Below are positions 7,110 to 10,012 of a stretch of 28,808 bases of DNA, piece by piece. The position numbers and the translations under genes were made by a program. The stretch lies in assembly GCF_003334315.1 (NCBI RefSeq), contig NZ_QOWR01000061.1; one strand, written 5' to 3'. Each line of letters starts with the position of its first letter. Position 1 is the stretch's first letter. This DNA comes from Escherichia coli. GTDB taxonomy: Bacteria; Pseudomonadota; Gammaproteobacteria; Enterobacterales; Enterobacteriaceae. Under the pieces are notes generated by a model. That model was not told the origin of the DNA and searched no databases. It worked only from the letters and a program-made list of their open reading frames with translations.

Positions 7110-7741
7110 AACGACGTGACACCATCGTGCGCTACACCGCGCCGGAACGTATCAACCACTGGATCACCGCCTTCTGCTTCATCCTGGCGGCGGTGAGCGG
7201 GCTGGGCTTTTTGTTCCCGTCCTTCAACTGGTTGATGCAAATCATGGGCACACCGCAGCTGGCGCGAATTCTGCACCCGTTTGTCGGCGTGGTTATGTTT
7301 GCCTCGTTCATCATCATGTTTTTCCGTTACTGGCATCACAACCTAATCAATCGGGATGATATCTTTTGGGCGAAGAATATTCGTAAGATCGTCGTCAACG
7401 AGGAAGTAGGTGACACCGGGCGTTATAACTTCGGTCAGAAATGCGTTTTCTGGGCGGCGATTATTTTCCTGGTTCTGCTGCTGGTGAGCGGCGTGATTAT
7501 CTGGCGTCCTTATTTTGCGCCTGCTTTCTCAATCCCGGTGATCCGATTCGCGTTAATGCTGCATTCATTTGCCGCAGTGGCGTTAATTGTGGTTATCATG
7601 GTGCATATCTACGCCGCCCTTTGGGTGAAAGGCACGATTACCGCCATGGTGGAAGGATGGGTTACCAGCGCCTGGGCGAAGAAACATCACCCGCGCTGGT
7701 ACCGTGAGGTCCGCAAGACAACGGAAAAGAAAGCTGAATGA
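7106..7741 (+). CDS. fdoI: Formate dehydrogenase-O cytochrome b556 subunit
   Basis: 211-aa polytopic membrane protein with conserved His residues; 4-bp overlap with fdoH stop (translational coupling). Confidence 0.9.
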
Positions 7742-8667
7742 GTATTCGCATAATCCCGCAAGATGAGCTGGGTTCAAGCGAGAAACGTACGGCGGATATG
7801 ATTCCGCCGTTATTGTTCCCTCGGCTCAAGAATTTATACAACCGCCGCGCCGAGCGTCTGCGCGAGCTGGCAGAAAATAATCCTCTGGGTGATTACCTGC
7901 GCTTTGCTGCGCTTATCGCCCACGCCCAGGAAGTGGTGCTGTACGACCATCCGCTGGAGATGGATCTGACTGCGCGCATTAAAGAAGCCAGCGCACAAGG
8001 CAAGCCCCCGCTGGATATTCACGTTCTGCCGCGTGATAAGCACTGGCAAAAGCTGCTGATGGCGCTGATTGCTGAGCTGAAACCTGAAATGAGCGGCCCG
8101 GCGCTGGCAGTGATTGAGAATCTGGAGAAGGCATCGACTCAGGAGCTGGAAGATATGGCCAGCGCGCTGTTTGCCTCTGATTTCTCGTCCGTCAGCAGCG
8201 ATAAAGCGCCGTTTATCTGGGCTGCACTGTCGCTCTACTGGGCGCAGATGGCCAATCTGATCCCCGGCAAAGCCCGCGCTGAATACGGCGAGCAACGTCA
8301 ATATTGCCCGGTTTGTGGTTCTATGCCGGTGTCCAGCATGGTGCAAATTGGCACCACTCAGGGGCTACGTTACCTGCACTGCAACCTGTGTGAAACTGAA
8401 TGGCACGTAGTGCGCGTAAAATGCAGCAACTGCGAGCAGAGCGGCAAACTGCATTACTGGTCGCTGGATGACGAACAGGCCGCGATTAAAGCCGAAAGCT
8501 GCGATGACTGCGGCACTTACCTGAAAATTCTCTATCAGGAAAAAGATCCAAAAATCGAAGCCGTAGCAGATGACCTCGCCTCTCTGGTACTGGACGCACG
8601 AATGGAGCAAGAAGGCTATGCCCGCAGTTCCATCAACCCGTTCCTGTTTCCGGGTGAAGGAGAGTAA
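7738..8667 (+). CDS. fdhE: Formate dehydrogenase formation protein FdhE
   Basis: 309-aa ORF with four CxxC pairs ([27 protein letters not shown]); start overlaps fdoI stop. Confidence 0.9.
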
Positions 8668-8848
8668 TCTCTGACGTTTTCCGGGTGGCGCAGGTCGCCC
8701 GGATTACAGCTCATAGGGTGTGACGACACCATCTCTCGTATTCCGCGTTACCACCTCAAGCTATGCCGCCAGTGCCGGTTTGGCCTCAATTTACCCACCA
8801 CCACATCAATAAGGTTATGGGCATGAGACTGATGACAAGCGTAAGATT

Positions 8849-8948
8849 GCCTGATGCGCTGCGCTTATCAGGCCTACCAATAAACTGCAATACATTGAAT
8901 TTATACGACTTTGTAGGCCGGATAAGGCGTTCACGCCGCATCCGGCAT
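8849..8948. repeat. REP/BIME element (two REP palindromes in opposite orientation)
   Basis: GCCTGATGCGCTGCGCTTATCAGGCCTAC (8849..8877) and GTAGGCCGGATAAGGCGTTCACGCCGCATCCGGCAT (8913..8948) match the enterobacterial REP consensus. Confidence 0.6.
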
Positions 8949-8996
8949 GAACAACGCGCACGTTGTCAGCAATCTGATTGACATCATTTTTTCCCA

Positions 8997-9215
8997 TTAC
9001 CATTCCTCGCGCAGCTTACGCTGATATTCGACACCATCTTCCTCACACCCTTGCCAGATGCCAGGAACACTGGTTCTTGCTGTTTGCGATTGATTTATCA
9101 GGTATTGATCTACCGCTTCCCTTAATAGGTCCGCACGAGGAAGATTACGCTGCACCTCGAGATCATCAAGTTGCTTAATCACCTCATTCGATAAATCGAG
9201 TAAAATTCTGCCCAT
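8997..9215 (-). CDS. yiiF: Ribbon-helix-helix (CopG/Arc/MetJ-like) putative transcriptional regulator YiiF
   Basis: ORF 8997..9239. Internal ATG at 9215 has the better SD (AGG, 7-nt spacer) and gives a 72-aa product ([39 protein letters not shown]...) with a beta-strand/helix/helix pattern. Paralog of yiiE. Confidence 0.7.
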
Positions 9216-9330
9216 ATCTATACCTGCCAGAGAGTTCATAAATATCTCGCCAATATCATTTTTGAATCTATGGAGAGAAAAGTACCCTTGCCGAATCTTT
9301 AAAGAAAGCTCATTTACGCATCATTTTTTA

Positions 9331-9352
9331 TTTTTGCGAGGCGTTTTCCAGA
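9331..9352 (-). promoter_or_regulatory. Conserved 22-mer upstream of yiiF (TTTTTGCGAGGCGTTTTCCAGA on + strand), identical to the element upstream of yiiE
   Basis: Exact 22/22 identity with 9769..9790 although the flanking DNA and the two coding sequences have diverged; a GTTGCAGTT block follows at similar spacing in both copies. Confidence 0.35.
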
Positions 9353-9456
9353 TATGATGTAACAGTTGCAGTTATTATAAGTTCAAGTAAAACAGCCTTG
9401 TATTAATACCAGAATAAGGGCATCTGTTTTTTATATTCAAGAATGAAAAATTTTTG

Positions 9457-9675
9457 TCATTCCTTATGCTCCTTACACTGATCATCAACACCAACTACCT
9501 CCCCCTTTTGCCTGCCTCCCTTTGCTTTACGCACCGGGAATTGCTGACGTTCCAGATATTGCTCTACCGCTTCGCGTAAAATTGCAGATCGTGAAACCTT
9601 ACGCCAGCCCCGAAGCTTGTTCAGCCGTTTAATTGCCTCTTCTGATAAATGAAGAAAAACCGTATTCATCGCCAT
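9457..9675 (-). CDS. yiiE: Ribbon-helix-helix (CopG-like) putative transcriptional regulator YiiE
   Basis: ORF 9457..9702. ATG at 9675 is preceded by SD AAGGTGG and gives a 72-aa product (MAMNTVFLHLSEEAIKRLNKL...ILREAVEQYL...), about half identical to YiiF in the RHH core. Confidence 0.7.
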   Translation of the reverse strand: MAMNTVFLHLSEEAIKRLNKLRGWRKVSRSAILREAVEQYLERQQFPVRKAKGGRQKGEVVGVDDQCKEHKE

Positions 9676-9768
9676 TACCACCACCTTACCTATATTACTC
9701 ATTAATGTATGTGCGAAAATTACGCCGGAAAATCATTTAAAAAAAGCGGATTTTTGCATGTTGTTTTG

Positions 9769-9790
9769 TTTTTGCGAGGCGTTTTCCAGA
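9769..9790 (-). promoter_or_regulatory. Conserved 22-mer upstream of yiiE (second copy of TTTTTGCGAGGCGTTTTCCAGA)
   Basis: See 9331..9352; on the gene strand it reads TCTGGAAAACGCCTCGCAAAAA, which has GG-N10-GC spacing. Confidence 0.35.
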
Positions 9791-10012
9791 AATAATAAGA
9801 GTGTTGCAGTTGTTTCATTTATTACTCAAAAATGGTTTAGTTATCGCCCAGGATGAATTATGGGTGCTATGAATATATTATATTCATAGATATTTATTTG
9901 CATAATCTGAATGGTGTAGCCGAAAAACGTCAGCATCCTAACAGCACCAGGATTTAAGGTGAAATTAATCTTTCATCACAGACCGGTCAGTACTGCCACC
10001 AACCGGTCTTTA

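Follow-up and report, generated by a model that had tools for sequence, protein, structure and literature searches.

CRP-S sites are elements at which the Escherichia coli regulator CRP acts with its co-activator Sxy (TfoX) in the competence regulon (Cameron & Redfield 2006; Sinha et al. 2009). Their motif, T4G5C6G7A8-N6-T15T16C17C18A19, is that of Sinha et al. 2009, as given by Søndberg et al. 2019 (PMC6728893); it is asymmetric, active in either orientation and associated with class-I-like activation, and the sxy promoter's CRP-S site, with the halves TGCGA and TTCCG, has been dissected experimentally (PMC6728893). The canonical CRP site, termed CRP-N, is TGTGA-N6-TCACA. CRP-S sites have also been described at toxin-antitoxin operons, namely hicAB P1 in E. 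coli and toxTA in Haemophilus influenzae, and chpSB, higBA and hokD are induced by sxy. Here, we describe a 22-mer, TTTTTGCGAGGCGTTTTCCAGA, that occurs twice in a 28,808-nt stretch of E. coli chromosome (contig NZ_QOWR01000061.1; hereafter the window), once upstream of each of the paralogous genes yiiF and yiiE, which encode ribbon-helix-helix (RHH) proteins. The original prediction, made from these letters alone, had taken the identity of the two copies as a sign of selection and had considered a shared RHH operator or a sigma-54 promoter. Our analysis suggests instead, with a probability of roughly 80%, that the two 22-mers are CRP-S sites, at which CRP would bind and through which Sxy would induce both genes.

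The 22-mer and the CRP-S motif

The 22-mer (+ strand) has exactly two matches in the window, at 9331–9352 and 9769–9790, even when three mismatches are allowed, and none of 100 shuffled sequences contained a match, so that no copy is expected by chance. The two copies are thus identical at 22 of 22 positions, as originally described, and they lie 115 and 93 nt from the start codons of their presumed targets, yiiF (8997–9215, − strand) and yiiE (9457–9675, − strand), respectively, measured from the K-12 starts; the distance first reported was about 90–140 bp. The yiiF and yiiE units form a diverged tandem duplication with a period of 438 bp. Their proteins are 40% identical over 73 aa, diverged as had been noted, with an identity somewhat lower than the ‘roughly half’ given then. 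Around the repeat, 100 nt of DNA are 73% identical between the copies, falling to ~65% once the 22-mer is excluded, which bears out the reported divergence of the flanks. At 65% identity, a perfect 22-nt run would seldom arise by chance (~0.006 over the region), whereas a 9-nt run such as GTTGCAGTT is expected one to two times; the 22-mer is therefore significant and the 9-mer alone is not. That 9-mer, which the original prediction had counted with the element, does accompany each copy, at 9365–9373 and 9803–9811, in both cases exactly 12 nt from the 22-mer and, at the yiiF site, on its gene-distal side. The yiiE orthologues of Escherichia conserve a longer block, ATAACTGCAACTGTTACATTAT on the gene strand, to which the 9-mer belongs. 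The general proposal of a selected regulatory element in both upstream regions is supported.

Parsed as TTTT-TGCGA-GGCGTT-TTCCA-GA, both copies match the CRP-S motif at 10 of its 10 specified bases. The half-sites TGCGA and TTCCA occupy 9335–9339 and 9346–9350 in the copy upstream of yiiF, and 9773–9777 and 9784–9788 in the copy upstream of yiiE, with the spacer GGCGTT in both. A run of T residues precedes TGCGA, which has C at position 6, and the weaker half-site TTCCA follows exactly 6 bp on, making the site asymmetric. Compared with CRP-N sites, the window sites have the same length, the same 6-bp separation of two half-sites and presumably the same binding protein, but they carry C in place of T at position 6 and a weak, non-palindromic second half-site, features that, according to the literature, make binding and activation dependent on Sxy.

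The resemblance to known CRP-S sites extends over the whole element. The dissected site of the K-12 sxy promoter (TTTGCGAGGCTCTTTCCGAAA; also written TTTGCGAGGCTCTTTCCGAA) agrees with the window copies at 16 of 20 positions and with the GGCGCT variant at 17 of 20. Further close relatives lie in the K-12 promoters of ppdD (TTTGCGAGGCGTT...), ppdA (TCTTCGAGACGCCTTCCCGAA), ybaV/comEA (TTTGCGAGGCGGCTTCAGG), ycaI/comEC (TCTGCGAGGCAGCTTCCAG) and yifB/comM (TTTTGCGAGCATCATTCCA), the last differing in the spacer only, as does a probable E. whittamii counterpart. A CRP-S matrix built from the K-12 sxy, ppdD, ppdA, ycaI and yifB promoters, with yiiE and yiiF left out, ranks the window copies first (yiiE, 25.4 bits) and second (yiiF, 24.2 bits) of 57,574 positions, the next-best position scoring 15.9 bits against a window mean of −12.5 (standard deviation 6.0). 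Consistently, a scan of 98 kb of K-12 loci allowing six mismatches returned ten matches to the element, eight of them upstream of sxy, ppdD, ppdA, ybaV, ycaI, rpnA, yiiE or yiiF and two, about the level of chance, in coding sequence. The window copies share with E. coli CRP-S sites a 22-bp CRP-type site of the form TGCGA-N6-TTCCA, the preceding T-run, the G-G/A-C that follows TGCGA, use in either orientation and a position upstream of what would be weak promoters, and they are near copies of the sxy, ppdD, ybaV and ycaI sites. They differ in that their targets would be orphan antitoxins and not DNA-uptake genes, and in that they are nearer the consensus than the competence-gene sites themselves.

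Several points weigh against this assignment. The ppdD, ppdA, ybaV and ycaI sites were chosen by their similarity to the published motif or to the element; sxy alone is confirmed as a dissected site, and the spacer positions of the matrix are thus not wholly independent. By chance alone, the motif's ten specified bases would occur about nine times per genome, and the case for CRP-S therefore rests on the extended match and on conservation. Depending on the −10 hexamer chosen, the site centre would fall at about −37.5, −51.5, −84 or −96. Lastly, the yiiE/yiiF locus has been reported to be bound by H-NS and to respond to SlyA, so that other regulators also act there.

The 2009 Sxy regulon reportedly comprises 34 CRP-S transcription units. 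Searchable open-access text never mentions yiiE or yiiF together with Sxy, and both sites may already be in that regulon list (Sinha et al.), in which case our result would be a correct re-annotation of the observed 22-mer.

Two sequences that resemble a CRP-S site or the element deserve mention. At 9083–9102, within the yiiF coding sequence, TTTGCGATTGATTTATCAGG has a CRP-S-like form (TGCGA-N6-TATCA); in the yiiE-type genes of other Escherichia, the corresponding position scores as well, which may simply reflect coding constraint. The K-12 feoC-rpnA intergenic region (L071, 2020–2040) contains TTTGCGTGCGGCTTTCCATAA, four mismatches from the element, upstream of rpnA, a gene for a recombination-promoting nuclease.

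On the gene strand the element reads CTGGAAAACGCCTCGCA, and the original prediction saw there the GG-N10-GC spacing of a −24/−12 promoter for sigma-54 that would drive yiiE and yiiF. The spacing is indeed present, as CTGG-AAAACGCCTC-GCA, and is kept in the Escherichia variants; furthermore, the glnA site in a table of sigma-54 sites from chromatin immunoprecipitation sequencing (ChIP-seq) likewise has TCGC at −12. What the element shares with sigma-54 promoters is the pair of GG and GC dinucleotides 10 nt apart. On a matrix of 50 intergenic ChIP-seq sites, in which real sites were scored leave-one-out, the element reaches 3.7 bits, below every one of the 50 sites (minimum 4.7, median 14.7), and 160 window positions score higher, placing it 161st. 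The control, IS47, is a published sigma-54 site that is intragenic and lies upstream of fdhE; it corresponds to CTGGCGCGAATTCTGCA in fdoI at 7259–7275 (+ strand), which came top in the window with 17.9 bits. The genome-wide maps list no binding at the element: yiiE, yiiF and yiiD are absent from the main text and tables of the ChIP-seq paper and from the list obtained by genomic systematic evolution of ligands by exponential enrichment (gSELEX), although the fdoI and fdoG sites nearby do appear there. The sxy CRP-S site, which is validated, has this sigma-54-like look too and scores 0.9 bits on this matrix, and in a relBE cassette next to cybC, described below, the element faces away from the operon. 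We regard a sigma-54 promoter as the least credible of all the readings considered here. Separately, CCGGCGTAATTTTCGCA at 9712–9728 (− strand), which lies between the CRP-S site and the start codon of yiiE, reaches 10.7 bits on the sigma-54 matrix, a value inside the range of real sites; neither yiiF nor the E. albertii-type orthologue has its GC at −12, and no sigma-54 peak is given there in the genome-wide maps.

Conservation in Escherichia and dispersal among Enterobacteriaceae

The yiiE orthologues of Escherichia all carry TGCGA, and their second half-site, TTCCA or ATCCA, changes only in its first base. Within the spacer, G-G/A-C is retained next to TGCGA and the last three bases are free to vary, as seen in the six spacers GGCGTT, GACGTT, GACTCT, GACGGT, GACGGC and GACTGC. 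Half-sites that are kept around a free spacer are the pattern expected of a bipartite CRP-type site.

To follow the element beyond Escherichia, we searched 100,044 genomes, one per species, for exact matches to its 19-nt core, TTGCGAGRCGYTTTCCAGA. The core was found on about 27 Enterobacteriaceae contigs, at no fewer than ten unrelated intergenic loci and with neighbouring genes on either side, in Kosakonia, Lelliottia, Enterobacter, Citrobacter, Leclercia, Pluralibacter, Phytobacter, Trabulsiella, Buttiauxella, Superficieibacter and Escherichia; about 23 scattered matches in other phyla are roughly as many as chance would give. Because the core occurs at so many unrelated loci in so many genera, the 22-mer is not specific to yiiE and yiiF. 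Many of the enterobacterial copies lie 50–130 nt upstream of toxin-antitoxin operons (higBA-like, vapBC and symE), others lie upstream of promoters with CTG-N10-CAG LexA boxes, and the core also lies upstream of a 149-aa gene between clpA and infA. At an esterase gene beside fabY, an alignment of five genera contains two conserved blocks only, the element and the −10/LexA box. In about 8% of E. coli genomes, a relBE cassette separates cybC from nrdG and has, just upstream of the promoter, the exact 22-mer, the operon being on the opposite side of the element compared with yiiE and yiiF. The search for YiiE homologues returned relatives in Escherichia/Shigella only, and the cross-genus evidence came from the DNA pattern scan. 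In the plasmid collection we found no genuine plasmid with the element, its four E. coli ‘plasmid’ matches being chromosome-sized records of 1–5 Mb, and three exact matches in viral contigs were uninformative. Two contigs, labelled Bacillus coahuilensis (L020) and Robinsoniella (L024), carry E. coli yiiF-region sequence and are probably assembly contamination.

These data bear on whether the identity of the two copies is a functionless relic of the tandem duplication or a recent patch of gene conversion. The two units clearly are a tandem duplication, and short conversion tracts between repeats occur; yet the flanks on both sides of the 22-mer have diverged to ~65%, the core is conserved at loci that are unrelated, in many genera, and emerges as a phylogenetic footprint, and the 22-mer agrees with the consensus of a regulatory motif that had been defined independently. 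A relic or conversion patch is accordingly an explanation to which we give almost no weight.

The genomic setting raised another possibility. In gene order, the window contains fdhE (7738–8667, + strand), repetitive extragenic palindromic (REP) elements, yiiF, yiiE, ~850 nt of non-coding DNA and fabY/yiiD (10528–11517, − strand). A 1.1-kb query from it is 100% identical to strain CP53 and 99.6% identical to K-12 derivatives; in K-12 coordinates, the two 22-mers lie at about 4079176–4079197 and 4079614–4079635. The fdhE-fabY interval is hypervariable in E. coli, and in other Escherichia (L001–L003, L066–L068) it is a hotspot that mixes vapBC, higB-like/nadS, DUF6708 and hypothetical genes with the LexA-box esterase, the K-12-like version in the window being the most reduced. 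In strain 142, yiiF is absent and a third copy of the element, CATTTGCGAGGCGCTTTCCAGA, has a higB-like/nadS toxin-antitoxin operon on one side and, on the other, the esterase gene, whose promoter contains a LexA box; in strain E138, two extra genes are inserted just beyond the yiiF copy, and the yiiE-type gene carries the variant TTTTTGCGAGACTGCATCCAAA.

Such a hotspot could mean that the element is a recombination or attachment site for the insertion, deletion and duplication of small cassettes. Up to three direct copies separate successive cassettes, and presence/absence breakpoints lie at the element or close to it: the yiiF deletion in strain 142 ends inside the first bases of the 22-mer, and in E138 the two genes are inserted ~25 nt beyond it. 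Against this, the neighbourhood has no recombinase gene, and the copies are direct repeats that lack a terminal inverted repeat partner. Cassette boundaries elsewhere do not coincide with the element. The RIT691 cassette ends at least 30 nt from the element, the cybC insert has it ~90 nt inside, and the strain 142 junction looks like a microhomology deletion. The element is also found at conserved promoter-proximal positions where no cassette is present. Taken together, a recombination site appears highly improbable to us.

Three unrelated promoters have a CRP-S site followed by a LexA box within ~15–55 nt: that of the esterase gene next to fabY (L001, 4672–4780; L029, L042, L044 and L052), that at the clpA-infA locus (L006, L012, L015 and L025) and that in the sulA-sxy intergenic region (L058, 3950–4020). 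This arrangement suggests combined control by the SOS response and Sxy. At the Lelliottia clpA locus (L025), five tandem copies of a ~50-nt unit (ggtcccctgtctgtgtgggtgatctccagggtgaaagtgtttgctcaatc) lie downstream of clpA, ~200–450 nt before the element.

Other identities for the 22-mer were set aside. The core forms half of a terminator-like stem in Silvania and in one viral contig, while a partner arm is lacking in most other copies, the window ones among them. A tRNA fragment, a marbox, a LexA box and the end of a mobile element with terminal inverted repeats were rejected by eye. An Rfam scan of 8600–10600 returned nothing at the repeats.

Elsewhere in the interval, REP-type palindromic elements lie at 8813–8952, between fdhE and yiiF, where Rfam gave weak or sub-threshold matches to REP-derived families (naRNA4 and ES036). 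The non-coding DNA between yiiE and fabY contains a perfect palindrome with 11-nt arms, CTATGAATATA-T-TATATTCATAG (9867–9889), which is not conserved in strain 142. At 9977–10014, two direct copies of CAC-N3-ACCGGTC-N-TTACT lie 20 nt apart; they are kept in other E. coli strains, where they adjoin a gene for a 92-aa hypothetical protein of which the window has a remnant only.

Orphan antitoxins and a possible operator

YiiF has a weak Pfam match to RHH_1. In an E. albertii-type locus (L066), a YiiE homologue overlaps the PIN/VapC toxin gene that follows it, forming an intact pair; the homologue resembles YiiE at its N-terminus and YiiF at its C-terminus, and its identity to YiiF is 64%. In the window, the C-terminal region of YiiE is decayed, and the list of open reading frames includes no toxin gene after either yiiE or yiiF. 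With the toxins missing from the window and the pair intact in the E. albertii-type locus, the two genes are orphan antitoxins and not complete vapBC modules. They are VapB-type RHH antitoxins that derive from a tandemly duplicated vapBC cassette. A YiiF-like protein beside a PIN fragment is also encoded in Superficieibacter (L029), where it shares its CRP-S site with the promoter of the esterase gene.

This ancestry aligns yiiE and yiiF with hicAB P1 and toxTA, with which they share the toxin-antitoxin type of operon, an upstream CRP-S site and a proximal region that is likely to be under antitoxin control. They differ in the type of module (vapBC, with an RHH antitoxin and a PIN toxin), in the loss of the toxins from the window strain and in being two tandem copies that each keep their own site. 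Upstream of K-12 higB (L072, 3600–3630), an operon reported to be sxy-induced, we observed TGGAA-GCGCGA-TTCCA, an inverted pair of the weak TTCCA half-site.

RHH antitoxins usually autoregulate, and the 22-mer could on this basis be an operator for auto- or cross-regulation by YiiE, YiiF or both, as was originally proposed. It lies upstream of both RHH genes, and the relBE cassette next to cybC, whose RelB is also an RHH protein, has the same sequence. Inspection and a repeat scan, however, revealed within the 22-mer no direct or inverted repeat of the kind that RHH dimers recognise. The same core also lies upstream of operons that have no RHH gene, such as the higB-like/nadS operon, whose antitoxin is of the helix-turn-helix type, and the esterase gene; in Phytobacter, where it is flanked by fdhE and the esterase gene, there is no toxin-antitoxin gene in the vicinity. 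The orthologues, moreover, keep the half-sites while the spacer varies, which is the bipartite pattern of CRP-type sites, and an antitoxin operator would more usually lie in a palindromic block next to the −10 element. We therefore consider the proposed shared RHH operator very unlikely.

Such a block may exist. An imperfect palindrome, CACATACATTAAT-G-AGTAATATAGGTA, lies at 9687–9713 (− strand), just upstream of the yiiE Shine-Dalgarno sequence; nine to ten of its 13 arm positions pair in yiiE orthologues, and the block is conserved across Escherichia. The search for inverted repeats near the −10 regions returned no exact 6-nt seed, and the evidence for the palindrome is weak. Tentatively, it would be a better candidate than the 22-mer for an autoregulatory operator of an RHH protein.

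A predicted Sxy-dependent promoter and its significance

If the 22-mers are CRP-S sites, their mode of action can be modelled on the sites already studied. [quoted passage not shown] Simple scans for sigma-70 promoters and terminators returned nothing useful on the gene strand, and the promoter positions that we propose are provisional. For yiiE, the candidate −10 hexamers are TACATT (9704–9709) and TAATAT, both overlapped by the palindrome at 9687–9713. For yiiF, TAGATT (9265–9270, − strand) aligns with the yiiE TACATT in the block shared by the paralogues and would place the centre of the CRP-S site near −84. Under this model, yiiE and yiiF would be transcribed as members of the Sxy ‘competence’ regulon, and any RHH autorepression would be more likely to act at the palindromic block near the −10 element than at the 22-mer. 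Tandem duplication of the vapBC cassette would have carried the site along, and selection for recognition by CRP-Sxy would have held it at the consensus while the flanks drifted.

More speculatively, and with less confidence than an even chance, we propose that CRP-Sxy recognises a word of ~20 bp, TTTGCGAG-G/A-C-N3-TTCCAGAA, which includes the first spacer bases and is thus longer than the ten published ones, and that this word marks small accessory cassettes (vapBC, relBE, higBA-type and symE) and LexA-box promoters across Enterobacteriaceae. A longer word, if true, would fit direct contact between Sxy and DNA. It would also mean that toxin-antitoxin modules and part of the SOS response are wired into the Sxy ‘competence’ regulon, and that the fdhE-fabY hotspot is an array of Sxy-controlled cassettes.

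For E. coli, the assignment supplies a concrete regulator that can be tested, CRP with Sxy, for two uncharacterised K-12 genes and traces their origin to decayed vapBC cassettes, and the two sites are strong natural test sequences for how Sxy alters the specificity of CRP. It also bears on the purpose of the Sxy regulon in this organism. We know of no natural condition that induces sxy and, to our knowledge, expression of sxy alone has so far not led to chromosomal transformation in E. coli. If the association holds, consensus-grade CRP-S sites near toxin-antitoxin cassettes and LexA-box genes of many genera would imply that the regulon is broader than DNA uptake.

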